From NCBI GenBank assembly GCA_963792585.1, contig CAWBWI010000003.1:1-64000 (forward strand): 64,000 nucleotides of DNA, read 5' to 3'. Positions within the stretch are counted from its first letter, which is position 1, and each line of letters starts with the position of its first letter. A program made the translations under genes and the position numbers. Shown here piece after piece: positions 1,487 through 41,277 of the stretch. This DNA comes from Candidatus Eiseniibacteriota bacterium (lineage in GTDB: Bacteria; Eisenbacteria; RBG-16-71-46; CAIMUX01; VGJL01). The notes under the pieces were generated by a model. The model was not told where the DNA came from and did not search any database. It saw nothing but the letters and a program-made list of their open reading frames with translations.

Positions 1487-2407
1487 CTACGGCAGGAGCG
1501 AGCGGATCGCGAACGTCACGTTGGCCGGCCGCTCGGCGAGCCGCCGCATGTACCACGGGTACCAGTGCTCGCCGTAGGCGATCAGCGTGCAGACCCGATA
1601 GCCCGCCTTGGCGAGGCGGAACTGCTCCCCGGTCCGGATGCCGTACAGCATCTCGATCTCGAAGGCGTCGTGAGCGACGCCGGCCGGCGCCACGGCCTCG
1701 GCGATCTGCTCGATCAGCTCCACGTCGTGGGTCCCCAGACCCAGCCGGATCGGGCGGCCACGACCGTCGAGCAGGAAGCTCACCGCCAGCCCGACGAAGT
1801 TCGAGTCGACGCGGCGCTTGTCGCGGTAGGCGATCGTCGCCTTCTCGTCATACGCGCCCTTGACCAGGCGGATCGCCGGGTCGAGCGGCATGAGCCGGGC
1901 CACGTCGCCGGCGGTGCGCTTGAGGTACGCCTGCAGGCAGATGCCCGTGTTGGGTGCCACCGCACGGAGACGTTCGTAGAGCCGGATGGTCGACTCGACG
2001 TACGCGCTGCTCTCCATGTCGATCCAGAGATACGACCCGGTCGCCGCCGCGTGCTCAGCGATCCGCACCAGGTGGGCGAGGGTCGCGTCCTCGTCGTGGT
2101 CCAGGCCCAGTTGGGTGGGCTTGACGGAGACTTCGCCACGGATGCCGCGGCGCTTGATCTCGTCGAGCAGCTCCACGTAGTGATCGGCGACCTCGTCCGC
2201 CTCCGACAGCGAGGCCAGGTTCTCGCCCAGACGCGTGTACATCGTCGCGATGCCCCCCGCCTGGAGCGGCGCGGCGGCGTCCAGAGCGGACGCCATGGTC
2301 TCGCCCGGCATGAACCGACGGACCGCACGCTGCATGAACGGGAACCGCGGCAGGCGCGCCTTGAGCCACGCGTTGTGCGAGGCCCACAGGAAGACATGAC
2401 GCATCAC
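1487..2407 (-). CDS. Monofunctional proline dehydrogenase
   Basis: RRFMPGET, SVKPTQLGL, IDME, LQAYLKR, IRLVKGAY, THD, EMLYGIR and YMRRLAERPAN motifs. Confidence 0.95.
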   Translation of the reverse strand: MMRHVFLWASHNAWLKARLPRFPFMQRAVRRFMPGETMASALDAAAPLQAGGIATMYTRLGENLASLSEADEVADHYVELLDEIKRRGIRGEVSVKPTQLGLDHDEDATLAHLVRIAEHAAATGSYLWIDMESSAYVESTIRLYERLRAVAPNTGICLQAYLKRTAGDVARLMPLDPAIRLVKGAYDEKATIAYRDKRRVDSNFVGLAVSFLLDGRGRPIRLGLGTHDVELIEQIAEAVAPAGVAHDAFEIEMLYGIRTGEQFRLAKAGYRVCTLIAYGEHWYPWYMRRLAERPANVTFAIRSLLP

Positions 2408-3174
2408 GGCAGACTCCTCACCATGCCACCGTCAACGGACACGATGGCTCCCGTGACGTACGACGCCGCGGGCGACAACAGGAACGCTCCAAGCCGACCG
2501 ACCTCGGCCGGGTCACCATACCGCCCCAGCGGGATGCGCTCGATCCACGCCGCCCGGGCGGCCTCGGGCGTCCCGCCGGTCCGGGCGGCGGTCGCCGCGT
2601 CGAGCTCGGCGATCCGTGCCGTCGAGAGACGGCCGGGCGCGAGGCCGTTGATCCGGATCGGCACGATCTCGGCGACCAGCGACTTGATGAGGCCGGCCAG
2701 CCCCGGACGGATGACATTGGACGCGGTCAATCCCGGGATCGGCTCCCGGGCCGACGACGAGAGGATGATCAGGATCGCCGCTCGATCGCTCTCGCGCAGG
2801 AACGGCAACGCGGCCCGGATGAGTCGCAGGGCGCTGTGCAGCGTCCCGTCGATGGCGCGGACCCAGGCCGCCTCGTCCAGATCCTCGAACCGGCCCGGTG
2901 GCGGCCCCCCGGAATTGACCAGCAGGAGGTCCAGACCGCCCAGTGCCGCGACGGTCGCCGCGACCGCCGAGGCGGGTCCCTCCGGCGTTGCGAGGTCCGC
3001 GGCTGCCGCGACCGCACCCGGGATGCGCGCCACCGCGTCATCGAGGCGATCCGACGGGCGCGCGACCAGGGCCACACGCGCGCCATCGGCGGCCAGCGCC
3101 GCCCCGATGGCCCCGCCGAGTCCGCCCGAGCCCCCACCGACCAGCGCGCGGGCGCCCTCGAGCCCCAGGTCCAT
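2404..3174 (-). CDS. Short-chain dehydrogenase/reductase (FabG-like)
   Basis: GGGSGGLG Rossmann motif, NSGGPPPGRF, IPLGRYGDPAE, VDGG. Confidence 0.9.
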   Translation of the reverse strand: MDLGLEGARALVGGGSGGLGGAIGAALAADGARVALVARPSDRLDDAVARIPGAVAAAADLATPEGPASAVAATVAALGGLDLLLVNSGGPPPGRFEDLDEAAWVRAIDGTLHSALRLIRAALPFLRESDRAAILIILSSSAREPIPGLTASNVIRPGLAGLIKSLVAEIVPIRINGLAPGRLSTARIAELDAATAARTGGTPEAARAAWIERIPLGRYGDPAEVGRLGAFLLSPAASYVTGAIVSVDGGMVRSLP

Positions 3175-3304
3175 GTGCTCCTCCGGATCCGTCGTGGATC
3201 CCATCATCGGGCGGCCCGTCACCGTCGCGGATCCGCCTCGATGGTACGCGTCCGTTCATGGCCGCGAGGCCCGTCTTCGCAGGTGCGGCTAGAATCCGCG
3301 GACG

Positions 3305-3715
3305 ATGACCAGGTTCTTCGACGTGGACGCCGCCAACGACGCCTTGGGCGAGATCTCGCCACTCCTTGCCGTGCTGGCCGACCAGCGGGCGGAGCTCATC
3401 CGCCTGCGAGACCGCGCGCTGGCGACCCCGTCGTCGCCCGGTGGCAGCGCGGTCGAGGACCTCGATCCCGCCGAGGTGCGCGTGCTCCGCCTCCGGATGC
3501 AGGGCGTCATCGACCAGATGACGGCTGCGGTCGCGCGGATCGACAGCCTGGGGATCACCCTCCGCGACATCGAGCGGGGGCTCATCGACTTCCCGGCGCT
3601 CGCCGGCGGTCGCCAGGTCTGGCTGTGCTGGCAGCTGGGTGACGGTGAGATCGCGTTCTGGCACGAGCTGGAGTCCGGCTTCGGCGGACGGCGACCTCTC
3701 ATCGAGCTCACATGA
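3305..3715 (+). CDS. DUF2203-family protein
   Basis: RFFDVDAAN...LRDIERGLIDFPA...VWLCWQLGDGEIAFWHELESGFGGRRP pattern. Confidence 0.85.
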   Translation: MTRFFDVDAANDALGEISPLLAVLADQRAELIRLRDRALATPSSPGGSAVEDLDPAEVRVLRLRMQGVIDQMTAAVARIDSLGITLRDIERGLIDFPALAGGRQVWLCWQLGDGEIAFWHELESGFGGRRPLIELT

Positions 3716-4179
3716 CCGCCGACAAGGCCCCGGCCCCGACTCCGGCCCCGGTCGCCCAGCGGGACCGGCGCGTCGTCCAGGCGGACGGTCGGGCCAAGGC
3801 ATACCGACCGCTCCCGCGGGCCGCCCGGGAGGTGGCCCTTGCCTCCGGGCTGGAGGCGTACGCGACCGGCGACTACTTCCTGGCCCACGAGCTGTTGGAG
3901 CCCGCCTGGATGGGGACCGCCGACCCGGGCGAGCGGGCATTCCTCCAGGGCCTCATCAAGCTGGCAGTCGCCGACGTGCATGGCGTCCGCGGTAACCCGG
4001 CAGGCGTCGCGCGCAACCTGGAGGGCGCCGTGGGCCGTCTCCGCCTCGCCGAGGATGCCGGCTTCAACGCACCGCCCGGGCTGGACCTGGCAGAGCTGAT
4101 CCGCGACCTGACGGTCCGCCTGGATCGGGCGCGACTCGGCGAGCGTACGGAGCCCACCACCCTGGGCGGGAGCCGCTGA
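3712..4179 (+). CDS. DUF309-domain protein
   Basis: GDYFLAHELLEPAW...FLQGLIKLAVA pattern; ATGA overlap with upstream gene. Confidence 0.8.
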   Translation: MTADKAPAPTPAPVAQRDRRVVQADGRAKAYRPLPRAAREVALASGLEAYATGDYFLAHELLEPAWMGTADPGERAFLQGLIKLAVADVHGVRGNPAGVARNLEGAVGRLRLAEDAGFNAPPGLDLAELIRDLTVRLDRARLGERTEPTTLGGSR

Positions 4180-4547
4180 TGCTCCGAGGACCCGACCTGC
4201 CCACGGTCGATCCGATCGAGGCCGGATCGCCGACTCCGGAGGATCCGGCGCGGCCATTGCTGGTGGACGTCCGGGAGGTGAACGAGTTCATCGCGTTGCG
4301 AGCGTCGGGGGCGGCGCTCCTGCCCACCTCGAGCTTCCTGGCCCGCATCGACGAGCTGCCGACCGACCGACCGCTCCTGGTGATCTGCGCCTCCGGCAGC
4401 CGCTCGGCCGCCGTGACCGGCTACCTCATCCGGGAAGGACGCGCGGACGTGGCCAACGTCGCGGGCGGCATGGAGCTCTCGGTCCGGGCCGGGCTACCGG
4501 TCCGTCGCGGTCCGGTCGAGCCGGGCGAGGGGTCGATCCCGGGCTGA
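4179..4547 (+). CDS. Single-domain rhodanese (sulfurtransferase)
   Basis: LLVDVREVNEF, active-site loop CASGSRS, NVAGGM. Confidence 0.9.
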   Translation: MLRGPDLPTVDPIEAGSPTPEDPARPLLVDVREVNEFIALRASGAALLPTSSFLARIDELPTDRPLLVICASGSRSAAVTGYLIREGRADVANVAGGMELSVRAGLPVRRGPVEPGEGSIPG

Positions 4548-4566
4548 GCCGTCACTGACGACGCCG

Positions 4567-4588
4567 CGTCGCGTCGCCGCGACGCGGG
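4567..4588. terminator. Hairpin between convergent genes
   Basis: CGCGTCGCG-TCGC-CGCGACGCG inverted repeat between the rhodanese and Kelch gene 3' ends; no U-tract. Confidence 0.4.
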
Positions 4589-4596
4589 TCGCCTTC

Positions 4597-6045
4597 TCAG
4601 CGACGCAGGACTCGCCGGATCATCCCGCGGGCCTGCTCCTTGTGGGCGAAGCCCCAGCCGATCACCAGCAGGATGATGAAGTTGACGGTACCGGCTCCGG
4701 CCGCGTTCAGGTAGCCGAGCTGCTGCCCGATCTCGCCTTCGATCTTGAGGCCGGGGATCGTCATCCCCGCGAGGCCGACCTGGAAGAACGGGCTGAGCGG
4801 GGCGACATTGGCTCGAGCGCTGCTCGACGTGGGACCCTCGACGGTCTCGCCACCGATGACGATCGCATTGGGGCCGGACAGGACCGCGGCACCGCCGGTC
4901 AGGCCGAACGGCAGGTCGCTGACGGGCAGGTTCTTCCAGGCGGGCAGATCGCCCTCCGTCGTCGGGATCGTCCAGTAGAGCTCGCCCCGCGGTCCCTCCG
5001 CGTCCTCGCCACCAACGAGGTACAAGGTGCCGTTGGCGGACCAGCTCGCCGCGTTGTCGCGAGCGGCCGGCAGGTTCGCGGTGTCACTGACGGCCCACTG
5101 GACCACCTTGCCCTCGTTCGGATCCTCTGGCAGGCCCTCGGCCGCCGCGACGCCGATGGTGCCGCGCTGGACCGCCCCGACCGGTCCGTTGGCATCGTGG
5201 CCGCCCCACAGCCAGACGTAGTCGCCGATGATCCATGCGGTGCCGTCTGCCTGCGGCCGGATGAGGCTCGCCTCGACCTCCCAGGGCTCGAACGACCCGT
5301 CGTCGGCGAGCGGGCTCTTCCAAACGGTCGATACCGGGCCTTCCGGACCCTCGCCGCCGATGAGCAGGATGCCGGTCGGGGCCGCGACGACCGCGGCGCC
5401 GGCGCGACCCTCCTTGAGCAGGAGGTCCTCGTCATCGACGATCTCCCAGTCGGGCAATGCACCGGTCGCGGCGTCCGGAGTCAGGGAATAGATGGTCCGC
5501 GTGGGTTCGCCGTCCGCGCCGTACCCGCCGATGACGAGGATGCTGCCGGACACGAGCAGAACGCTCGCGTCCGTGCGCGGCTCGGGCAGCGACGGACCCG
5601 TCTCCCACGCGCCGAAGTTGCCCGTGCCGGACAGCTCGGCGACGTAGACGGTGGACTGCGCCGTCTCGCCGTCCGAACCCCCGATGTACAGGAACTTCGT
5701 GCCGATCTGGATCGCACTACCGTCCGTCCGCGGCTGCGGCAGGGCGAGCTCCGCCGGGGACGGATGCCACGGCGCGACGGCGCCCACCGGCGCTGGGCAG
5801 GGCAGGGTCTCGTTCTCGGGCGAGCAGAAGTTGATCGGGGACCAGACGAGGACCCCGAGCTCCACCGTCCGGCCGACGGTCAGGTAGTACGCCCGGTCGG
5901 GGATGTACCCGAGCATCATGATCAGGACGATCAGCCAGAACGTGGCCTTGACGCCGGCCCAGGCCCAGCCATCGGCGTCGAGCGCGCCGAAGAAGACCCG
6001 CTTGCGCGGGACCGTGCTGCCAGCGCCGAGCGCTTGCTGCGCCAT
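4597..6045 (-). CDS. Membrane-anchored Kelch-repeat beta-propeller protein
   Basis: Six GG/W Kelch-like repeats (LYIGG, LVIGG, LLIGG, WLWGG, YLVGG, IVIGG); hydrophobic helices near both termini; GGGAGG RBS before ATG 6045. Confidence 0.8.
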   Translation of the reverse strand: MAQQALGAGSTVPRKRVFFGALDADGWAWAGVKATFWLIVLIMMLGYIPDRAYYLTVGRTVELGVLVWSPINFCSPENETLPCPAPVGAVAPWHPSPAELALPQPRTDGSAIQIGTKFLYIGGSDGETAQSTVYVAELSGTGNFGAWETGPSLPEPRTDASVLLVSGSILVIGGYGADGEPTRTIYSLTPDAATGALPDWEIVDDEDLLLKEGRAGAAVVAAPTGILLIGGEGPEGPVSTVWKSPLADDGSFEPWEVEASLIRPQADGTAWIIGDYVWLWGGHDANGPVGAVQRGTIGVAAAEGLPEDPNEGKVVQWAVSDTANLPAARDNAASWSANGTLYLVGGEDAEGPRGELYWTIPTTEGDLPAWKNLPVSDLPFGLTGGAAVLSGPNAIVIGGETVEGPTSSSARANVAPLSPFFQVGLAGMTIPGLKIEGEIGQQLGYLNAAGAGTVNFIILLVIGWGFAHKEQARGMIRRVLRR

Positions 6046-6080
6046 CGTCCTCCCATCCTCACCGACCACGAGGTCGGATC

Positions 6081-7178
6081 CTATTCCGCGGTGATCGTGC
6101 CCGTCATGTTTGGATGCACGGAGCAGATGAACGGGTACGTCCCCGCTGCCAGCGCCGCGACGTTGTAGGTGGCCTCAGCTTCGCCGGTGATGATGTCCCC
6201 ACGCATCAGCGAGGTGGCCGTCTGGTCCTTGACCTCCACGTTGTGGGGGACTCCGACCTCCTTGTTGACGAAGTGGATCTGGAACGCCACGTCGGCCGGC
6301 ACGGTGTACTCCGACTCATCGAAACCGGCGCTGGTCGTCGCCGAGATCTCGAGGACGGTGGCAGCCGGGGCGACCGAGGGACCGGCGGACGCGCCGGCCG
6401 ATGCTCCCGGCGAGGCGGAGGCGCCGGCGCCTGGAAGCGCCTTGGTCCAGCACGCCGGGTACGGGGTCGCACCCGGGGCCGGCGCGTAGTTCGGGTCGCG
6501 CCAGCCGGTGAACGTCTCGACCTCCCCGGTCAGTGGGTCCGTCTTGGGCTCGAACAGATGCTCGTCCCGGATGATGAAGGTCTCATCGTCGGTGGCCATC
6601 AGAAACGCGACGAGGTCATCGATCGCCTTGTAGTTGAGCGGGCCTGGCGGGGTCGCCGTGTCGGCCCACACCGGCATCTGGGAGTTCGCCGTACCGCAGG
6701 CATACCGGCCGCCGGCGACCAGGATGGTCCGCAGGTAGTTCTCGTTGAGATGCTGGAAGAGCTTCTCCTGGCTGTTCAGGATCGGGCCGATGCCGCCCTC
6801 GCCGTCCACGCCGTGGCAGCGCGCGCAGTTCGCCTGGTAGATGTTGTACCCACGCTCGACCGAGATGACCTGCTGCGCCGCCACCTCGGCGTCCAGTCGC
6901 GGCTCTGTCAGCCCGAGTGGCGTGCCGAGCTCGTAGAACCAGTAGATCGCCACGAACAGGATGACCACGACGACCGCGAGGAACCCCACCCAGCGGGCGT
7001 TCGACGACTGGCGCACGACCTGCGCGGCCCGCTCGGGCGTGAGCTCGAACGTCCGGGTCGCCGGCGCCGACGTGAACCGCTCCACCGGCGCGGCCTCGAC
7101 CGGCGGCCGGGGAACGGGCAGGCGCTGTTCCGGCTCGGGCTCGTGCCCCGTGGGCTCGCGTCCGGGCGTGTCGGTCAT
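6081..7178 (-). CDS. Membrane-anchored cytochrome c fused to a C-terminal cupredoxin (blue copper) domain
   Basis: TM helix, CARCH heme motif with downstream Met (SQMPVW), PHNV...CSVHPNM type-1 Cu ligands. Confidence 0.85.
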   Translation of the reverse strand: MTDTPGREPTGHEPEPEQRLPVPRPPVEAAPVERFTSAPATRTFELTPERAAQVVRQSSNARWVGFLAVVVVILFVAIYWFYELGTPLGLTEPRLDAEVAAQQVISVERGYNIYQANCARCHGVDGEGGIGPILNSQEKLFQHLNENYLRTILVAGGRYACGTANSQMPVWADTATPPGPLNYKAIDDLVAFLMATDDETFIIRDEHLFEPKTDPLTGEVETFTGWRDPNYAPAPGATPYPACWTKALPGAGASASPGASAGASAGPSVAPAATVLEISATTSAGFDESEYTVPADVAFQIHFVNKEVGVPHNVEVKDQTATSLMRGDIITGEAEATYNVAALAAGTYPFICSVHPNMTGTITAE

Positions 7179-7214
7179 CGGTCTCCTCGGTCGTGGATCT
7201 GGGTCATCGGGGCG

Positions 7215-7889
7215 TCAGATGCAACCGGTGGGGGTGCGTGGCGGGATCAGGCCGGGCTGGCCCAGGGCGACCGGCAGGGGCCCCAGGGTGATCTTGCCCG
7301 TGTTGATGGTCAGAGCGCCCTCGCCGTCCACCGTGACACTGAAGCGGTCCATGCCGCGCGGGGCCGGTCCATACGCGGCTCCGTCGGCCTTGACGCCCAG
7401 GCGGTCGTACCGGGATCCGTGGCACGGGCACTCGAGCCAGAAGTTGCGCTCGCACGGGTTCGGCTTGCAGCCGAGATGCGGACAGCGCTGGTACAGCGCC
7501 CGGACGTTGAGGGCGGTGCCGTCCCCGGTGGTGTCCTCGCCCGCGATGAAGCGCTGCTGCGCCGGGTCGATCAGGATCACGAACGCGCGAGCCTCGGCGT
7601 AGTACGCCGGAAAGCCCTCGTCGACCGGGATGACCGTGTTCTGCGCCTTCACGTCGTCGAAGGTCCCGATGCGGAACGGCGCACCGAACCCGCCGGCCAG
7701 GTTCGGCCAGATGAACCCGATCGTCCCCGCCCCCACCTCCAGCAGCCACAGGCCGATGCCGGTGCCCAGCGCGACCCGCATGAGCTGACGGCGCGACATG
7801 CCCTCGACCTGTTCCTTGCGGAGGGACTTGATCGCCTCCTTGGTCAGGGCCTGGGGCTTGGCGGCGGGCTCGACGTGGTAGTTGCTCAT
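7215..7889 (-). CDS. qcrA: Rieske 2Fe-2S subunit of a quinol:cytochrome c oxidoreductase
   Basis: Tat-like SRRQLM plus TM helix; CPHLGC and CPCHGSRY boxes; GPAPRGM. Confidence 0.92.
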   Translation of the reverse strand: MSNYHVEPAAKPQALTKEAIKSLRKEQVEGMSRRQLMRVALGTGIGLWLLEVGAGTIGFIWPNLAGGFGAPFRIGTFDDVKAQNTVIPVDEGFPAYYAEARAFVILIDPAQQRFIAGEDTTGDGTALNVRALYQRCPHLGCKPNPCERNFWLECPCHGSRYDRLGVKADGAAYGPAPRGMDRFSVTVDGEGALTINTGKITLGPLPVALGQPGLIPPRTPTGCI

Positions 7890-33682: not shown

Positions 33683-33759
33683 CCGCCCGTAGCTCAGTGG
33701 ATCAGAGCGACTGACTTCGGATCAGTAGGTCGGGGGTTCGAATCCCTCCGGGCGGGCCA
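33683..33759 (+). tRNA. tRNA-Arg (anticodon TCG), CCA encoded
   Basis: Acceptor stem CCGCCCG/CGGGCGG, D arm GCTC/GAGC, anticodon stem ACTGA-CTTCGGA-TCAGT, T arm GGGGG-TTCGAAT-CCCTC; TATCAT -10 box at 33668. Confidence 0.97.
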
Positions 33760-33762
33760 TCG

Positions 33763-34882
33763 TCATCGGTCGCGCGAGCGGTCGACGCCTACGAGTCGGC
33801 GCCCCTGGATCTCTGGGATCGGTGCTCCGGCGAAGTCGAACAGGACCAACGCCTCGTCGAATCGGATGCGAGCCGCGACCGCCCACTGGTCGTCCTTGAC
33901 GGCGCCTTCGAACGACCGATCCACGGACGAGAGGTAGAGGTCTCGCGCGGCGCTGACCCTGGCCTCCGTGGGCGCCTCCTCGGCCGCTTTCGCGACCCGG
34001 CCCTTCGGTGCCCCGGCCGTGAGGGCAAGGTCCAGCCAGTGCGCCCGCTTCGCGGTCCATCGCTCCTCATCCGCGATCCGGCGGCGCTCCGCCTCGAACA
34101 CCGGCAAGGCCGCCTCCATGAGCCAGACGGTCCGGTCATCGACGTGTCGCACGACGATCTGCTGCTTGCACTCGGTGCACCGTCGATCCGACGTCGGAGG
34201 CGGCTGCAGGATCGTGGCGCAGTAGGGGCAATAGGCGCGGGCGTCCACGGACGCCACGGCCGGTGCGGCACGACTGGCGGCGCAGCTCGGCCACGGGTGG
34301 CTCGGCCCGCGGATCGCAGCGACCTCGGATCCAGTGACAGGCTCGAAGTCCAGTCCGATCCCCGGAGAACAGCGTGTCCTGGGCGGGCGCGTCCACCGCG
34401 ACGGACGGATCGTCGACGGCGACGGCGCGGGATCGGCCGTCCACCCCGGAGCCGGCGCCCCGAGGAACATCACCAGTGGGGTCGCGTCGAGCTCCGGATC
34501 CGCCGGGACCGGCGCGGGCGGCTCGTCGATCCCGGCGATGCGGAAGACGAGGGGCTTTCGCACCTTCGCAGCGGAAGCCTGGTCTACCGATTCAGTCACG
34601 TCGATCGCCTCATCTGCTTCAGGCACGCCAGCCGACCGGCGCGGCCTGGGGTGGGTCGGTGGGGTCGGTGTCGCCGATGGGATCCGAGTCGTTCGCCGGG
34701 ACGGACACGACCGTCGTCTGCGGACGATCCGGTTCGGCGACACCGCCAAGCCGTTGGAGGGTCACGGCACGGACGCGCTCGACCTCCGCTGCCTGGTCGT
34801 CCGGTGATCGCTTGAGACGCCGTTGCACGTTGGCCAGGACCGATCCCTCACGAGTCGGCGGCCCTGCGTTCGTTTCCGTCAA
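33763..34882 (-). CDS. Hypothetical protein with CPYC...CTEC zinc ribbon (frameshifted, possibly 3'-truncated)
   Basis: ORFs 34619-34909 and 33763-34749 join across frameshifts; YCPYCATIL...RCTECKQ; TTG start with GAGG upstream. Confidence 0.6.
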
Positions 34883-34967
34883 TCGACTGCCTCGGCCGAT
34901 CTCGGCCAACCTGTCGGGGAGTGACGCCCACGGCGCGGCGTCGAACCCGAGTGACGCTACCAGTGAG

Positions 34968-34983
34968 TAGCCCGATCGGGCTA
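34968..34983. promoter_or_regulatory. Perfect 16-bp palindrome TAGCCCGATCGGGCTA (candidate operator)
   Basis: Seen directly, upstream of the zinc-ribbon gene. Confidence 0.45.
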
Positions 34984-35187
34984 GCTGAAGCCGCCGAACG
35001 TACTATTCAAGGTGCGTCGCGGCACCGCCGCCGGTCCCGTCGACCGCACCGCTCCGGACCGGACGATCCCAGACCACACCGCACCACATCAGCTGGCGCC
35101 GACTCGCCACATTCGGCTCCTGACATCATCGACGCAGCGCAGGCCACAAGTTGGGTAACGGACGGCGATGGGCAGGAGAGGGAAACG

Positions 35188-35508
35188 GTCGGCTCGGGCC
35201 CGAGCCAGGATGAACTTGAGCAGTTCATCCGTGCCAGCTTTGAGTGATCCTCGACCCGTCAGTGAACGCCTCCGGTCCGCGTTGTCTGGGCGGGCGTCGA
35301 GGCGGGCATCCGGGCAGCCGCTCGGTCGGCCCGCTCACCCTCGGCGACGGGCGGATCGCGAACGTCTCGCCAGCCCGAGCGCCTCGCGGCGAAGTGCCGA
35401 GCCACCTCCGCCCGCATCGGCGCGACGTGCCTCGGGCCGCTCCGGACAGCGACTGAGTACGAGCTACCCGTGTTGTTCCTGCGCGCCCGCTGCCCTCCGG
35501 GCGGGCCA
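35188..35508. repeat. Conserved islet right-end element, copy 1 (321 bp)
   Basis: Near-identical to 36512-36749 apart from an extra ~82 bp (35261-35342); ends in the tRNA 3' 16-mer. Confidence 0.95.
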
Positions 35509-35613
35509 ATGTCATGAGTCGCGACGCCACCGGCGGCGACTAACGAGTCGCGCGTGGGTGACAGCCTCGTCGTCGATCGACCTCCGCCGCACCTTGCGGC
35601 TGTGGTCCGGCGT

Positions 35614-35817
35614 TCACTTCCGGTCGTCGTCTGACTCGAAGATCGCTTCGATCGGCTGGTCGAAGAGACGGGCGATCTTGAATGCGAGCGGGAGCGACGG
35701 GTCATATCGACCCGTCTCGATCGCGTTCACGGTCTGGCGTGAGACGCCCAGCTCGTGCGCGAGGTGCTCCTGGGACCACTGGCGCTCGGCGCGGAGGACC
35801 CGGAGACGGTTCTTCAT
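35614..35817 (-). CDS. XRE/Cro-family HTH transcriptional regulator
   Basis: MKNRLRVLRAERQWSQEHLAHELGVSRQTVNAIETGRYDPSLPLAFKIARLF. Confidence 0.95.
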   Translation of the reverse strand: MKNRLRVLRAERQWSQEHLAHELGVSRQTVNAIETGRYDPSLPLAFKIARLFDQPIEAIFESDDDRK

Positions 35818-36197
35818 CGGTATCGCCGCGCCGACCACACGAAGCCGACCGCATAGAGGCCGACGAGGATCCCGAAGATGACGAACCCGCTCAAAGGCTC
35901 GTAGCCGAGGCCCTCGAGGAACCCCCACGAGACGGCGACAAGCATCGTCCCAAGGCACGACACGGCGAGTGCCGTCAGGCGGATCCGCTGCTGAAGTTCG
36001 TCGTCGGCGAGGAACTGGGCGATCGCGATCGCGATGATCGCGATCGCGGCAGGCACGGGCATCAGCGCGACCAGCGCCCGGGGCAGGTCGCCGACGATCG
36101 CGTCTCCGCGAAGGATCGCGATCGACACGAGCAGCAGCCCCGCGTAAGAGACGAGCGCCGCCCCGAGCTCCAGTGTTCGGCGATGGCGGCCGGTCAC
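35814..36197 (-). CDS. Small 4-TM membrane protein
   Basis: Four hydrophobic helices with DELQQRI motif, typical of XRE-associated membrane proteins; ATGA overlap. Confidence 0.85.
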   Translation of the reverse strand: MTGRHRRTLELGAALVSYAGLLLVSIAILRGDAIVGDLPRALVALMPVPAAIAIIAIAIAQFLADDELQQRIRLTALAVSCLGTMLVAVSWGFLEGLGYEPLSGFVIFGILVGLYAVGFVWSARRYR

Positions 36198-36352
36198 GCG
36201 CGACGCCGCCGCTGGATCTCCCGCGCGAGCACGAAGGTGCCCATCGCCCCGGCCAGCCCGATCAGGTACCCGATCGACCCCATCGATGCCGCGAACGCCG
36301 CGCCGATCCCTATGCCCATCGCGGCAGCCTGCCCCATGGTCCGCTCGTTCAT
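36194..36352 (-). CDS. 52-aa membrane peptide (not in the ORF track)
   Basis: AAGGAGG RBS; MNERTMGQAAAMGIGIGAAFAASMGSIGYLIGLAGAMGTFVLAREIQRRRRA; GTGA overlap with next gene. Confidence 0.75.
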   Translation of the reverse strand: MNERTMGQAAAMGIGIGAAFAASMGSIGYLIGLAGAMGTFVLAREIQRRRRA

Positions 36353-36511
36353 CTGTCGTGCCTCCTTGTCTATACGTAAAGCGTGCTTGTCTATTCGAAG
36401 ACTATGCCCGACCCACGCAGGCTGTCAAGGACCCTTGTCACATGTCGCGTCCAAGAAGGGATCGCCTGGCACCTGTTCGCACTCGCCCTTGGCTGACTCG
36501 TTGATGGACCT

Positions 36512-36749
36512 GTCGGCTCGGGCCCGAGCCGGGATGAACTTGAGCAGTTCATCCGTGCCAGCTTTGAGTGATCCTCGACCCGTCGGCGATGGGCGGATCG
36601 CGAGGTCTAGCCAGCCCGAGCGCCTCGCGGCGAAGTGCCGAGCCACCTCCGCCCGCATCGGCGCGACGTGCCTCGGGCCGCTCCGGACAGCGACTGAGTA
36701 CGAGCTACCCGTGTTGTTCCTGCGCGCCCGACGCCCTCCGGGCGGGCCA
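36512..36749. repeat. Conserved islet right-end element, copy 2 (238 bp)
   Basis: Matches 35188-35508; ends in the tRNA 3' 16-mer at 36734-36749. Confidence 0.95.
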
Positions 36750-36760
36750 GCTTCCCTGGG

Positions 36761-37351
36761 CTATCGCGGCGGGCGGACCATCCCGGTCAGCGTGTGGCCG
36801 AAGCAGTCACCCTGGCCGATGATCTCGAACCCGCGCTTCCGGTAGAAGGCGATATTGGAGTCCGTCGCGGTCTCGAGGTAGCAGGGCACGCCGGCGTCAT
36901 CGGCCCGTGACGTCCCCACCTCGACGAGCTTCGAGCCGAGTCCCTGGCCCTGCCTGGCCGTCCGCACCCCGGCGGTCATCAGGTACCAGTGCGGGCCCTC
37001 GACCTGCTTGTGGAAGGCCTCGGTCACGGCCATCGCCTTCGAGAAGCGGTTCAGACCGCCAACGCCAAGAGCGAGCGGCATCCGCCACATGCCCGCCCGG
37101 AGCATCCTGGGCATGCTCATCGGCCCGCTCTCCGGATGGAGCCAGACGGCCACAGCCGAGACGTCTTCATTGGCCCACACGCGCCCGTAGCGCAACCCGT
37201 AGGCAACGGGGACGCCCAGGAACGGTGTGGCCTTTGCGCGCCGCGCGGGGTCGGGTGCGACGATCTCGAGTAGCGGGTCGTTCGCGAACGCCTCGGCGAG
37301 CGTCAGCGTCGCCGCGCGCTCCTGATCGGGGCGTAGCTCAGCCAGTTCCAC
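36761..37351 (-). CDS. GNAT-family N-acetyltransferase (puromycin-acetyltransferase-like)
   Basis: LAEAFANDP, HWYL, RQGQGLGS, CYLETATDSNIAFYRKRGF. Confidence 0.92.
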   Translation of the reverse strand: MELAELRPDQERAATLTLAEAFANDPLLEIVAPDPARRAKATPFLGVPVAYGLRYGRVWANEDVSAVAVWLHPESGPMSMPRMLRAGMWRMPLALGVGGLNRFSKAMAVTEAFHKQVEGPHWYLMTAGVRTARQGQGLGSKLVEVGTSRADDAGVPCYLETATDSNIAFYRKRGFEIIGQGDCFGHTLTGMVRPPR

Positions 37352-37364
37352 GTGGGCTCCTCAC

Positions 37365-37739
37365 TTGCCTCGGACGGACGTGGGGTCCGATCGTTGCAGG
37401 AGCGTACCAGCCAGCTCAGGGCAACCGGCGGATGACGATCCTGCCGGCCACGCTCGGCTGGATGTACGACCTGCCGGACACCCGCACGTGATCAGCGGGA
37501 CTGCGGAGATCGTCGGCGGGCTCGGCCTCATCTTGCCGAGCGCGACGAGGATCCTCCCGGTGCTGACCGTGTGGGCCGCCGCCGGACTCGCGGTCGTCAT
37601 GCTCGCGGCCGCCGCCTGGCACGTCGGTCGTGGCGAGGTCACCAACATGAACCTCGTGCTCGCGGCGCTCCTCGGCTTCATCGCCGTCCGGCGCGCCAAG
37701 GTGAACCGGATCGAGCCGCGCGCCGCGAACTCGGGCTGA
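37365..37739 (+). CDS. DoxX-like membrane protein (N-terminus uncertain or damaged)
   Basis: GTAEIVGGLGLILP...AAAGLAVVMLAAAAWHVGRGE. Confidence 0.7.
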   Translation: MPRTDVGSDRCRSVPASSGQPADDDPAGHARLDVRPAGHPHVISGTAEIVGGLGLILPSATRILPVLTVWAAAGLAVVMLAAAAWHVGRGEVTNMNLVLAALLGFIAVRRAKVNRIEPRAANSG

Positions 37740-37830
37740 AACCCGGGTCCACCTTGCCACCGGAGCTGCGCGCGGCCGGTGGATATTCGCCGATGTCGTC
37801 GCGTTGGCGAGATGGTTGGCGCGGTCGGCG

Positions 37831-38926
37831 TCAGGCCTCCCCGGCGACGACCATCGGGAGGCCGATCACGGGGCCGAGGCGGTCCGCTGCCATGCCGCGG
37901 AGCCGCTCGGCGAGACTCGGCCGGTTCACGTCGGATGGCAGCACCACGATGGCACCGCTGAACCGTCGGCCCGCCTGCGCCAGACCCTCTGCCCCGGAGG
38001 CAGTCGGAAACCAGCCGCCCGCGTCCACGCCCGCGGCCGTCGCCGCCTCCAGGTAGGTGATCGATGGCCCCCCGGCCCTCGCGACGCGCGGTGGCGATGT
38101 CGAACAGCCGATCGGGTGACGGGCGGTTGGCGTCGTCGCCACGCCAGTCGTGATACGGGCTCGCAAAGCCCTCGGCCGAGCGGTCGACGATGACGAGGGC
38201 GCGATCCTCTCGCCGGGCGAGAGCCAGCGCGGTGATGAACGCCAGCCGGTCAGCCCCCCGACCCACGGCCACCACGACGGCTCCCGGGCCGGCATCGGAG
38301 GCAGGTTCGTCGAGCAGGACGTCGCTCGCCTTGACCAGCTCCAGGGCGGACGCCGAGGGCGGCACCTGGTCGACCGGTGGAGGCGGTGCCCCGATCGGCA
38401 GCAGGGTGCGGATGAGGAGGTCGACCACGTCCGCATCGTCGGAGACGAAGCCGACGAAGCGCTTGCCGGGACTTGCTGCGCCGCCGATGCCGAACGTCTT
38501 CGCGTCACCGAGCTCGTAGCTCACGAACGCCAGGGGCTCGGGCGAGTCGCTCACGAGGAACCACTGGTTCTCGAGGCGGCGGGTGTCGGCCGGCAATGCC
38601 CGGTAGTCGAGGTCGTCGAGGCCGAGGCCGTCGGCACGTTGCCCCGCCGCCCACGCGACCACCTGGGTTCCGGCAGCGAGGAGGGCTCGGTACCGCTCGG
38701 CCTCGACGTCGAACTTGGCGGCAGCCTGGAAGCCCACAAGGAGCCGTCCCCCGGTCGCGGCGCGCTCGATGTCCCGGGTCGTTCGCAGCATGGCACGCGG
38801 GTCGTAGGTGAAGCGGGTGGCATCAGGTGCGCGACCCAGTGCCTCGGCGAGACGTCGGCCGATCTCGAAGATCCCGGAGTCACCTGCCCCGACCGGGTAC
38901 GTCCAGTCCATTTCCCTGGTAGCCAT
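37831..38926 (-). CDS. DICT-like sensory domain fused to a USP-like domain (frameshift near 38060)
   Basis: GFQAAAKFDVEAERY...NQWFLV...RFVGFVSDDADVV (DICT pattern); AVVVAVG...ALALARRE..LVIVD (USP-like); AAGGAG RBS. Confidence 0.6.
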
Positions 38927-39002
38927 ATCGCTGAGCTCCTTGCGTTGGTCCGCTCCGGCTGCCTGCGGATGCACGAGACACTCGACTCCGCGAGCGAACC
39001 CG

Positions 39003-39569
39003 TCAGGCGGCGAGGACGGTGTTGCTGCGAGCGCGTTCGGCGAGCTCGGCGACCAGCTCGGCGATATCGGCGCGGATCCCCGCGTCCGTCAGGGCGAAGT
39101 CGTCGCGGAAGGCTCGTGCCGCGAACGGAACGGCGACGACATGGTCGAGCACGTCCGAACGCGTGCGGCCCAGGATCCGCACGACTGACTCGATCCCGCC
39201 GTTCGCACCACCCCCCCCGGTGGACGCGCCCATCACCGCGACGGGCTTTCCGGCCAAGATCCTGACCGGCCCGCGGGAGGCCCAGTCCAGGGCGTTCTTG
39301 AGGACACCACTCGTGGCGCCGTTGTACTCGGGCGTCGCGAGAAGCAGCGCGTCTGCATCGACGATGGCCCGCCGCAGGGCAACGACGGTCGCGGGAAGTC
39401 CCGCGTCCTCGAGATCCCCGTCGTAGAACGGGAGGGCGGCGAGCCCATCGAACGTCCCGGCGGATACACCGCTCGGGGCGAGCTGCGCAGCAGCACGCGC
39501 GAGCGCCCGGTTGTACGAGTCCCGCCGAAGGCTGCCCGCAAGGATCAGGATCTTGATCGTCTCGTCCAC
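39003..39569 (-). CDS. NADPH-dependent FMN reductase
   Basis: GSLRRDSYNRALA, LPFYDGDLE, TPEYNGATSGVLKNALDWASR. Confidence 0.93.
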   Translation of the reverse strand: MDETIKILILAGSLRRDSYNRALARAAAQLAPSGVSAGTFDGLAALPFYDGDLEDAGLPATVVALRRAIVDADALLLATPEYNGATSGVLKNALDWASRGPVRILAGKPVAVMGASTGGGGANGGIESVVRILGRTRSDVLDHVVAVPFAARAFRDDFALTDAGIRADIAELVAELAERARSNTVLAA

Positions 39570-39754
39570 CGTGTCGTTGACCTTCGTTCTTCCGTCTGGT
39601 GATTCGATTTCCACCCGCTGTCGATCTTGATTCGTTCGTGCGGCGCGCGCGGATGGGTCGAAGGACGCTGACCGGCTCCAACGCCCTTGCCGGTCTGACC
39701 GTCGGGGCGCGCCAGGTACTCCGGTTCCGCGCGGTCTGCGCCCCCGGCAACCCC

Positions 39755-41277
39755 CTACCGGACGAGCGCGCGCAGGTCGGCTCGAAGCAGCTTGCCGACC
39801 GAGCTCCGCGGCAGCCGGTCGAGGAACGTGATCGAGACGGCACCTCATGCGGCGCGAGCCGTCCGCGCGCGAACTCGATGAGCTCGGTATCGGCGACCGA
39901 GCTTCCGGGAGTCAGGACGACGAACGCCGCCCCGACCATATCGCCATCGGCGGTCACGATCGGCACGACCCCGGCGTCGACGACCGCGGGATGGGTCATG
40001 AGCTGGCGCTCGACATCGCCGGGATAGACCGTCCGACCGCCGACGATGAAGCCGGCGTCGACGCGATCGACGATCCAGACGTCGCCGTCGCCGTCCACGC
40101 GTGCCGCGTCTCCGGTGCGCAGCCAGCCATCGGCGACCAGCACCTCCCCGGTGTCGGCCGGTCGACGCCAGTACCCGGCCATGACGTTCGGGCCACGCGC
40201 CAGCAGCTCGCCGGTCTGGCCAGGCTCGACATCGTGCCCGTCCGGGATCGACGATCCGGATGTCGACGAGCAGTGGCGGCCGACCGGCCGACCCGACCTT
40301 CTGGAGCGAACGCTCGGCGTCGAGAAGCAGGACGAGGGGGCCTGCCTCGGAGAGCCCGTAGCCCTGGACCAGGGCGACCCCGCGGTCGTGGTAGGCGCGG
40401 ATCAACCGTTCGGGTACCGGTGCACCCCCGGTCAGGATGAACCGGATGCTGGACAGGTCGGCCACCGGCCAACGCTCGGCGCGCATCAGCTCGTCGAGCA
40501 CGTCCGGGTTGCCGAAGCCGACGCTGACACGATGCCGTTCGATGACCCCGAGGAGCCCGTCACCGGTGACGTCATCCGGCACGACGACGGTGCCCCCGAG
40601 AAAGAGCACGGGCAGGACGTTGACGCCCGTGCCGCCGACCCGGAAGAACGGGGCGATGGCGATCGTCACGTCGTCGCCCCTGAAGTCGGCGCGGGACAGG
40701 AAGTTGACGACGTTCCAGGTCACGTTGCCGTGGCTCAGCATCACGCCCTTGGGAGACCCGGTCGTGCCCGAGGTGTGGGGCAGGAACAGCAGGTCGTCGA
40801 GGGCGATACGTACGTCGGGCACGTGATCCGGCGACCCCGCGACGAACGCCTCGTAGTCGATGGCACCCGCGGCGACGCCTGGGCCGACGAGCGAGGCGGT
40901 GGCGAACCGAGGCGGGCGCGCGTGTGGGCGCCACGGCGTGATGCTCGATCAGCACCGTGGGCTCGGCGTCCTCCAGGATCAGGGCACGCTCGTTCGACGC
41001 CAGGCGGTGGTTGACCGGGGCAAGGACGGCACCGAGCGTGCCGGCTGCGAAGAACGCCTCGAGGAAGGCGCCATGGTTGGGGCCGATCCAGGCGACGCGA
41101 TCGCCGCGCACGACCCCGAGACGGTCGAGGCCGGCCGCCAGCCGGCGGATGCGCTCGGCCAGCTGCCCGTAGGTGACCGGTCGTCCTCCGGCTGATGATC
41201 GCGGGTCGATCCGGATCGACTCGCGCTCGCCGCTCGATCCACGAGCCGACGCCATGCCTGCCGCTCTCGAAGCTCAC
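39755..41277 (-). CDS. Acyl-CoA synthetase (AMP-forming, long-chain/MenE-like); multiple frameshifts
   Basis: HTSGTTGSPKGVMLSH, GYGLSEAGP, GWLRTGDAA, GKLLR across frames. Confidence 0.88.

Follow-up and report, generated by a model that had tools for sequence, protein, structure and literature searches.

The 64,000-nucleotide (nt) stretch analyzed here (hereafter the window; positions 1 to 64,000 of contig CAWBWI010000003.1) contains a tRNA-Arg(TCG) gene followed by an array of two small units, each closed by a 16-nt copy of the tRNA 3' end. Comparison with related loci suggests, at a probability of roughly 0.7, that the array arose by tandem accretion of islands of large serine recombinases (LSRs) that have since decayed to remnants resembling cis-mobilizable elements (CIMEs). 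Throughout, G000 denotes this assembly, C3 the contig with the window, and L-, P- and X-numbers the fetched loci, proteins and sequencing runs, respectively. The array, including its predicted attachment (att) sites and insertion sequence (IS) remnants, comprises the following features:

33683..33759, plus strand: tRNA-Arg(TCG) gene (ARAGORN, Rfam), with the T-arm and acceptor end as the target site
33744-33759, plus strand: core 1 (the tRNA 3' end), within tRNA-Arg(TCG)
33760..33799, plus strand: degenerate IS481 left-end remnant, occupying the position expected for the left att arm of unit 1
33763..34880, minus strand: unit-1 cargo gene, whole, ~370 aa, no Pfam family (homologue tblastn, Pfam scan)
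35109..35286, plus strand: BD-FAE (PF20434) esterase gene, 3' remnant with its downstream flank, copy 1 (stop codon at 35245-35247)
35287..35470, no strand given: right-end DNA of the presumed esterase island, without assignment
35471..35492, plus strand: 22-nt att arm (P arm) of core 2, from its matrix score
35493..35508, plus strand: core 2, the putative attR of unit 1 and attL of unit 2
35510..35540, plus strand: IS481 left terminal repeat remnant (16-nt exact IS-end match at 35510-35525)
35614..36352, minus strand: unit-2 cargo, an XRE/HTH_3 regulator (35614-35817) and two small hydrophobic open reading frames (ORFs; 35814-36197 and 36194-36352), from the ORF list and Pfam
36401..36428, minus strand: sigma-70-like promoter match upstream of the unit-2 genes (consensus match only)
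36512..36711, plus strand: copy 2 of the presumed esterase-island right end, shorter than copy 1, with an additional 82-bp deletion, and joined to the XRE unit immediately past 36506
36712..36733, plus strand: 22-nt att arm (P arm) of core 3, from the matrix
36734..36749, plus strand: core 3, the putative attR of unit 2
36761..37351, minus strand: GNAT acetyltransferase gene (Pfam; comparison with L013 and L023)

The anatomy given in the initial annotation, which described three copies of the tRNA end, a near-identical element before the second and third, and two units of about 1.75 and 1.24 kb with unrelated cargo and no recombinase, is borne out. Within the 5.4-Mb assembly, only three copies of the 16-nt core exist, at 33744, 35493 and 36734; they delimit a unit 1 of 1749 bp and a unit 2 of 1241 bp. 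The element copies (35188-35508 and 36512-36749) align at 96-99% identity with a single 82-bp gap and several substitutions; no further copy of the 35188-35508 element was found in the 5.4-Mb assembly, and the homology reaches left to at least 35109, beyond the start at 35188 noted earlier. Profile searches of C3:1-94 kb returned no PF07508, PF00239, PF00589 or IS481 transposase. The proposal that the cores are att sites left by serial insertion at the tRNA 3' end also stood when the loci of relatives were compared, in which other cargo was found at the same tRNA site.

Across these relatives, the conserved part before the core is only ~22 nt long, with the consensus TGTTGTTCCTGCGCGCCCGACG. 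Scored with a matrix of 29 training sites, the window's two included (maximum on reversed sequence, 0.9 bits), the core-2 arm reaches 29.9 bits and the whole site 55.3 bits, this site having been part of the training set. In some sites, a GAACAAC motif after the core mirrors the start of the arm, producing an imperfect inverted repeat centered on a CC dinucleotide, which is also where the tRNA identity begins. The direct repeat at island boundaries starts in the T-loop region, and the right core of L120 starts at the same base. The att geometry of serine integrases is well established, and the inverted repeat fits an enzyme of this type, with the presumed crossover point at its center. Cores 2 and 3 are accordingly arranged like attR-type sites of LSR islands, which we take them to be: their right arms are intact, and on the left, IS481 ends have taken the place of the att arms in both window units, giving an att symmetry of 10/23 versus 16-17/23 for the rebuilt attP of LSR islands (L160, L170).

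Core matches were found in 63 of 401 and 60 of 301 genomes, most, not all, of which were fetched. After removal of six duplicate loci, 55 distinct loci with an intact tRNA could be assigned to overlapping classes: an arm site downstream (11, nine of them selected through the arm pattern), a long anticodon-arm duplication (8), an IS end directly 3' of the tRNA (4), other exact copies (3), none in the fetched stretch (32), and too short (2). The long duplications (~50 nt, from the anticodon arm) belong to tyrosine-integrase islands (L061, PF00589) and form a separate class.

The association with LSRs is seen in these relatives. In L014, L037 and L059, reverse-strand translations into the core yield LSR C-termini, and these retrieve 64 proteins, many of them full LSRs with PF00239, PF07508 and PF13408. 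The C-termini of the LSRs P0002 and P0011 are encoded by the reverse strand of tRNA-Arg(TCG), and P0001 reads over a displaced site into the arm of another element. Close LSR relatives occur in 3 of 401 genomes, every one at tRNA-Arg(TCG) or its remnant; at this gene, the 7.4-kb island of L120 carries RepSA, restriction-modification cargo and an LSR gene with a frameshift, and L117 encodes an intact 553-aa LSR together with RepSA. The LSR gene lies at the left edge, on the reverse strand and overlapping attL, in L117, L119, L120 and L134-L153, and LSR stumps stand beside cores in L014, L037, L059, L018 and L213. A second LSR clade (P0081), reached via the L018 fragment, has matches in 88 of 401 genomes, mostly at tRNA-Arg(CCG) and also at TCG and TCT genes; a search of G000 with P0081 returned one distant LSR only, outside the window segment. 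The attR arms of this clade in L160 and L170 are identical to the window arm (core 3) at 15 of 22 positions (random mean 6.2, null P 7.5e-5). Across its displaced site, P0082 reads ARPTGVGRA, versus ARPEGVGRA in the window, and in L213 a tail of the P0081 clade is attached to the core type seen in the window.

Several further features of these LSRs were observed. Many LSR genes in this class terminate within, or next to, the reverse strand of a tRNA 3' half, including genes at tRNA-Glu (L098, L104), Pro (L113, L115, L121, L127), Asp (L124, L131-L133), Val (L122) and Arg-CCT (L102, L129); serine integrases that target tRNA genes thus form a broad set here. Near 18440 in L117, the LSR and RepSA island adjoins a damaged tRNA-Arg that has a short internal duplication and lacks its 5' half. 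LSR genes displaced by a later insertion (P0001, P0082) gain another C-terminal tail of 20-30 residues from the arm of the neighbor, and the state of the att site may thus switch the LSR C-terminus, as has been proposed for DsiB.

The element that precedes cores 2 and 3 is composite. Positions 35109-35286 correspond to the 3' terminus of a BD-FAE esterase gene and its flank, with 89.9% identity over 178 nt to L013, where the gene is complete, and 79% to L070. The ~185 nt before the arm (35287-35470) matched none of the tRNA-Arg(TCG) loci retrieved and are present in a contig from run X4; no RNA family was found within the element by Rfam. A zinc-ribbon gene remnant at 35304-35414, hinted at by BLAST (E 0.002), was rejected by a profile test (E ~3). 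The unit-2 XRE cargo is 96.6% identical to L033 over 992 nt, and L033 has the XRE unit's own arm just after the equivalent of 36506, where the window has the esterase remnant; the fusion of esterase and XRE sequences is common to the window and X1 and absent from L033 and X6. The 238/321-nt "end element" had been proposed as the end of a unit, and consists instead of an esterase-gene remnant plus att arm, fused onto both units. Likewise, the "shared ends" did not prove to be cassette ends, the conserved att end amounting to ~22 nt plus the core. We infer that both window units are fusions of zinc-ribbon or XRE cargo to the right end of an esterase island.

The unit-1 protein has a low-complexity N-terminus and a C-terminal CxxC..CxxC (zinc-ribbon) domain, with one frameshift near 34637. 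It has 193 homologues at E<=0.001 and matched no Pfam family, and an atlas search with the zinc-ribbon domain returned unnamed clusters only. This family of at least 193 unannotated proteins shares long low-complexity N-termini and a conserved CPYC..CxxC domain; its longer members carry an additional Cys-rich C-terminal part, which is absent at 33763-34880. Upstream of the unit-2 genes, the one sigma-70-like promoter match compares with 0.2 +/- 0.4 in shuffled sequence.

The sequences that follow cores 1 and 2 had been described as related and interpreted as the left end of a cassette. Their likeness is real and weak (78% over 59 nt, E ~6e-4), and the sequence 3' of core 3 is unrelated to both, as had been stated; by alignment, the shared motif is identified as the left terminal repeat of an IS481 element. 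The copy at 33760..33799 aligns with IS481 ends of L014, L074, L013 and L033, with weaker likeness than the copy at 35510. Full elements measure 1312 and 1315 bp in L014 and L074, and their miniature inverted-repeat transposable elements (MITEs) measure 47 and 167 bp. The ends read TGT...ACA, of which the window holds left ends only, and a 15-16-bp core copy flanks the elements (one copy degenerate in L033). The L074 transposase scores 253 bits against the NF033577 cut-off of 224; a shorter frame in L014 scores 201 bits, below the NF033577 cut-off. With the ISNCY model, the transposase reaches 84.7, far short of the cut-off of 250.

Exact IS481 end motifs number 67 in 37 of the 181 genomes of the family, and these come from kin genomes and are not independent events. 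In 61 of the 67, a CCA lies 0-3 nt before the end, as against ~7% expected from a rough base-composition estimate. All 21 ends that were inspected (19 with CCA, 2 without) adjoin a tRNA 3' end or att copy: 13 stand behind complete tRNA genes, of 7 isotypes in all (20 of the 21 were scanned with Rfam); 7, judged by eye, stand behind a tRNA 3' fragment or att copy; and the last is inverted, its core lying on the opposite side. The order of arm, core and IS in L200 and L205 is exactly that at core 2. Core copies made by IS481 are preceded by ...GACA, without the first C of the 16-mer. It is thus very probable, judging from these positions, that this IS481 group prefers tRNA 3' ends. No report of such targeting was found by full-text literature searching, a search whose reach did not extend to ISfinder or TnPedia, and the chances are about even that the behavior is so far undescribed. 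IS481 elements and MITEs lie 0-2 nt after the CCA of tRNA Arg, Ala, Gln, Val, Ser, Ile and Pro, and after att copies; the loci concerned are L194-L214, L013, L014, L033, L074, L118, L165 and L179, with tandem copies in L074.

The array most likely does not belong to the organism after which the assembly is named. The GC content of C3:1-94 kb is 70-74%, versus ~65% elsewhere, and in a Markov model this segment scores like the fetched Chloroflexota loci and the remainder like G000. Most likely, the window is a Limnocylindrales-like (Chloroflexota) segment, presumably of the class Limnocylindria, mis-joined into the contig of another organism, and the taxonomy of G000 should not be applied to it. 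A search with the junction pattern matched 12 metagenome contigs and 14 genome loci (10 from uncultured Chloroflexia, 2 from Candidatus Limnocylindrales, and 2 chance actinobacterial matches). The genes 5' of the tRNA match their counterparts in L011, L013, L014, L016 and L022. Among 40 relatives of G000, the element search gave only weak 30-77-nt matches, in 7 genomes, which are uninformative about the window because the contig is chimeric. L017, L020 and L032 were excluded as chance matches within coding genes, and the arm of L031 is poor. Searches of viral contigs gave no match to the element pattern, and no locus for LSR P0005. The last ~6 kb of C3 apparently also score Limnocylindrales-like, and G000:C5:1-40000, the start of another contig, has 39-46% GC, a further sign of a chimeric assembly.

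Contigs from four runs of four studies were aligned on the array region. A 611-nt contig of X1 covers 36130-36739, joining the unit-2 cargo to the shortened element; a 1652-nt contig of X4 consists of a core, then ~1150 nt of other DNA, then 35109-35508 in the long form; and in X6, the unit-2 cargo runs almost directly into the core. The junctions are reproduced in independent contigs. The repeat is therefore a genuine feature of the DNA; an assembly error, which had been named as an outcome that would overturn the proposal, does not account for it. Since the XRE cargo of X6 lacks the element, the latter does not form a constant terminus of the XRE unit.

A history that accommodates these observations can be outlined as follows. 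The tRNA-Arg(TCG) gene would be an insertion hotspot for islands whose LSR gene, at the left edge and on the reverse strand, reads into the tRNA T-arm. Recombination at the CC dinucleotide just after the T-loop would restore the tRNA end with each insertion, and leave an arm and 16-nt core at the right end of the island. Later islands would insert in front, because the left junction still resembles an empty site, such that the newest adjoins the tRNA. Deletions would then remove the recombinase and most of the interior, producing integrase-free remnants of 1-2 kb. In the simplest history, an esterase island was present twice, and each copy was fused by deletion to its left neighbor. Independently of these steps, the tRNA-end-targeting IS481 would have entered cores 1 and 2 directly behind their CCA, and only its left end would have survived later decay. 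The anatomy, the homologies and the LSR association in relatives are observed directly; the crossover point, the order of events and the deletions are deduced from them.

In eleven loci, LSR genes beside the sites are cut from the 5' end by graded lengths, which points to decay of autonomous islands. An LSR stump in L160 lies between two att sites 3531 bp apart, and at L200:38-113 a 60-bp core-to-core unit consists of little but two arms, followed by an IS481 end. Units found in common between loci are constant at the right (arm) end; their variation is at the left, the side of the LSR gene. Profile searches found no integration genes in the window units, which, as in CIMEs, have lost their transfer genes. 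Several observations weigh against decay as the full account. The eleven truncated loci were chosen as C-terminal-only hits, mostly at tRNA-Arg(CCG), and were thereby selected for truncation. The other listed attR arms match the window arm at 7-14 of 22 positions, L120 at 10. No intact LSR joined to exactly the window's arm was found in 106 loci around the core (tblastn), none with this arm type was found near tRNA-Arg(TCG) in 52 genomes, and no LSR remnant was found within the window's own units; we therefore look to the sister clades for the cognate enzyme, which would then be an LSR. The X4 contig, of which only the length and ends are readable, roughly suits a whole esterase unit in its length. 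Furthermore, small units recur beside different neighbors, including a 432-bp monooxygenase (ABM) unit (L018, L025, L029, L015; 85-92%), an 848-bp GNAT unit (L013, L023; 96.5%), and the XRE unit (window, L033, L026, X4, X6); together they are 85-97% identical and resemble mobile cassettes. This recurrence could be explained by excision and re-insertion in trans, or by shuffling of the array by helper islands together with core-core recombination.

An alternative would therefore be that the units are purpose-built non-autonomous cassettes of 0.4-4 kb, with a ~46-bp attP only, re-inserted as circles by an LSR acting in trans. The recurrence of single-gene units in different contexts suits this explanation, as do the compact size of the 27 arm-bounded units (median 1270 bp; hand-defined, with re-occurrences in different loci included), among whose scanned cargo ORFs no recombinase family was found, the seven cores (one IS-made) within 10.5 kb of L014, and the prevalence of LSR genes in the class (the 88 of 401 genomes with P0081 matches). 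Additionally, both arms are kept in L200 and in two units of L023, the latter with 14/23 symmetry. However, the left arm is missing from most units, both window units included, the left ends of shared units are variable, and LSR stumps and gene fragments persist; the 60-bp arms-only unit would be better explained by deletion than by insertion of a circle, and an arm site was present in only 5 of 49 tRNA loci found independently of the arm pattern (L081, L083, and the duplicates L044, L073 and L079). We consider such cassettes unlikely, while mobilization of individual units in trans is possible. It is also improbable that the site is a working platform on which attP-only units are moved in trans by RepSA-type helper islands, with IS481 adding cores and deletion ends; if true, this would be a serine-recombinase analogue of the integron.

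The accretion of decayed LSR islands accounts better for the cores than three other origins. Tyrosine integrases are the usual agents at tRNA genes, the only ones known to target them according to the available sections of Islander (PMC4383910), and they do use tRNA-Arg(TCG), as in the L061 island and the 8 of 55 loci with a long duplication; their islands duplicate ~50 nt from the anticodon arm and not the 16-nt core, and the window arm and boundary match LSR islands, which makes this origin very improbable. That the cores are target-site duplications of IS481, and the units IS-ended cargo cassettes, might be suggested by the IS481 left end at the start of both units and by the 15-16 bp of core that the IS duplicates. 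This is largely refuted, in that the units end in an att arm with no IS right end before cores 2 and 3, the IS-made copies lack the first C of the 16-mer, and most arm-bounded units of relatives have no IS end. Nor is a single local tandem duplication, or a long-read mis-assembly, at all probable: the 96-99% identity of the element copies and the chimeric contig with its frameshifted genes would favor it, and a duplication of the esterase island may be one historical step, whereas the copies differ by the deletion and several substitutions, the cargos are unrelated, X1 pairs the short form with XRE cargo and X4 the long form with other upstream DNA, and arm-core sites are present in 12 other Chloroflexota genomes.

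Beyond core 3, the GNAT gene (36761..37351) forms an att-bounded unit in L013 and L023; no right att was detected for it in the window, and it is probably an older accretion. By the arm matrix, no further att site above 14 bits was found in window positions 31001-64000. The DICT-domain gene and the gene after it (window 37361-39848), the latter of which we take to be FMN-reductase-like, adjoin arm-core sites in L035, L034, L027 and L026. The accreted region probably extends several kb past core 3, with its att sites lost. Elsewhere at the tRNA-Arg(TCG) site, a PF00211 adenylate/guanylate cyclase is strikingly frequent cargo (L011, L014, L019, L022, L059, L081, L083), and between L015 and L018, cyclase-like, DUF2269 and hydrolase genes are inverted behind the same tRNA. 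In L023 (oriented 1918-7244), a Tn7-like TniB/TniQ set lies just upstream of the GNAT unit and att array, the tRNA being outside the fetched stretch.

Taken alone, the array is a further case of a known phenomenon, tandem accretion at a stable-RNA gene, and its significance is modest. Arrays of this kind are missed by island-finding tools that require an integrase and >=2 kb (PMC12424338). The less expected result is the targeting of tRNA ends by IS481, which creates false att cores and may mislead island finding. If confirmed, this group would represent a DDE transposon that has one gene and targets safe sites, and the way in which it recognizes tRNA genes could be tested. Several LSR clades in this class act at tRNA genes (Arg, Pro, Glu, Asp, Val), their att sites being short and readable, and these integrase-att pairs are directly testable.

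Integrons likewise consist of rows of small recombinase-free units, with the newest at one end and with content that varies between genomes, and the array had been called integron-like. This likeness is not supported: the candidate recombinase family is the LSRs, with 5'-truncated genes in relatives, and no adjacent IntI is present (no PF00589 in C3:1-94 kb or in the scanned arm-bounded arrays). The sites derive from the tRNA end and fit serine-recombinase geometry, the cargo genes are oriented toward the tRNA with a promoter match of their own, and the junctions are explained as arm plus tRNA end. Surveys later than Islander reportedly record serine integrases at tRNA genes. In its available sections, Islander (2015) treats them as not known there (PMC4383910), and the portions available of PMC12424338 and PMC12884075 do not settle the later cataloguing.

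The IS elements resemble the IS481 family in their size (~1.3 kb), single DDE transposase over the NF033577 cut-off, TGT...ACA ends and MITEs. Members of the IS1202 family, which includes the target-specific ISAba32 subgroup, insert at a fixed distance from a recombination site, and those of the ISTde1 subgroup generate repeats of 15-17 bp (bioRxiv 10.1101/2022.12.17.520857, available part). Here, the targets are instead tRNA 3' ends of at least 7 isotypes, together with att copies, and tRNA is unmentioned in the available part of that source (10.1101/2022.12.17.520857).

In the CIME model, as outlined in the accessible part of PMC5704250, an element integrates and decays while keeping its att sites, and a new element enters at the same site. 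CIMEs and the related integrative conjugative and integrative mobilizable elements (ICEs and IMEs) there mostly use a tyrosine integrase at gene ends, or, as serine-recombinase IMEs, disrupt protein genes (PMC5704250). In the window units, IS ends occupy the place of the left arms, making a functional attL doubtful.

The closest parallel in form is provided by the ssrA islands of Dehalococcoides with their DsiB serine recombinase (McMurdie et al., 2011; PMC3146451, sections available). Their ~540-aa recombinase is encoded on the reverse strand with its 3' end overlapping attL, and 15 of 31 islands are without an integration module (PMC3146451). The array differs in its target, tRNA-Arg; in the LSR and RepSA of L117 and L120, which take the place of the six-gene DsiB module; in its much smaller units (0.06-7 kb); and in the IS481 ends at its junctions, and it thus falls outside a strict definition by an ssrA target and a DsiB-DsiA-RecF-ParB-Mom module. 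According to the same sections, ssrA islands insert in the T-loop region and have a conserved ~15-bp motif just 5' of the repeat, to which the 22-nt arm of the window is comparable (PMC3146451). As in the window, they occur in the same phylum, stand in tandem behind a stable-RNA gene, and are bounded by a short repeat of its 3' end (PMC3146451).

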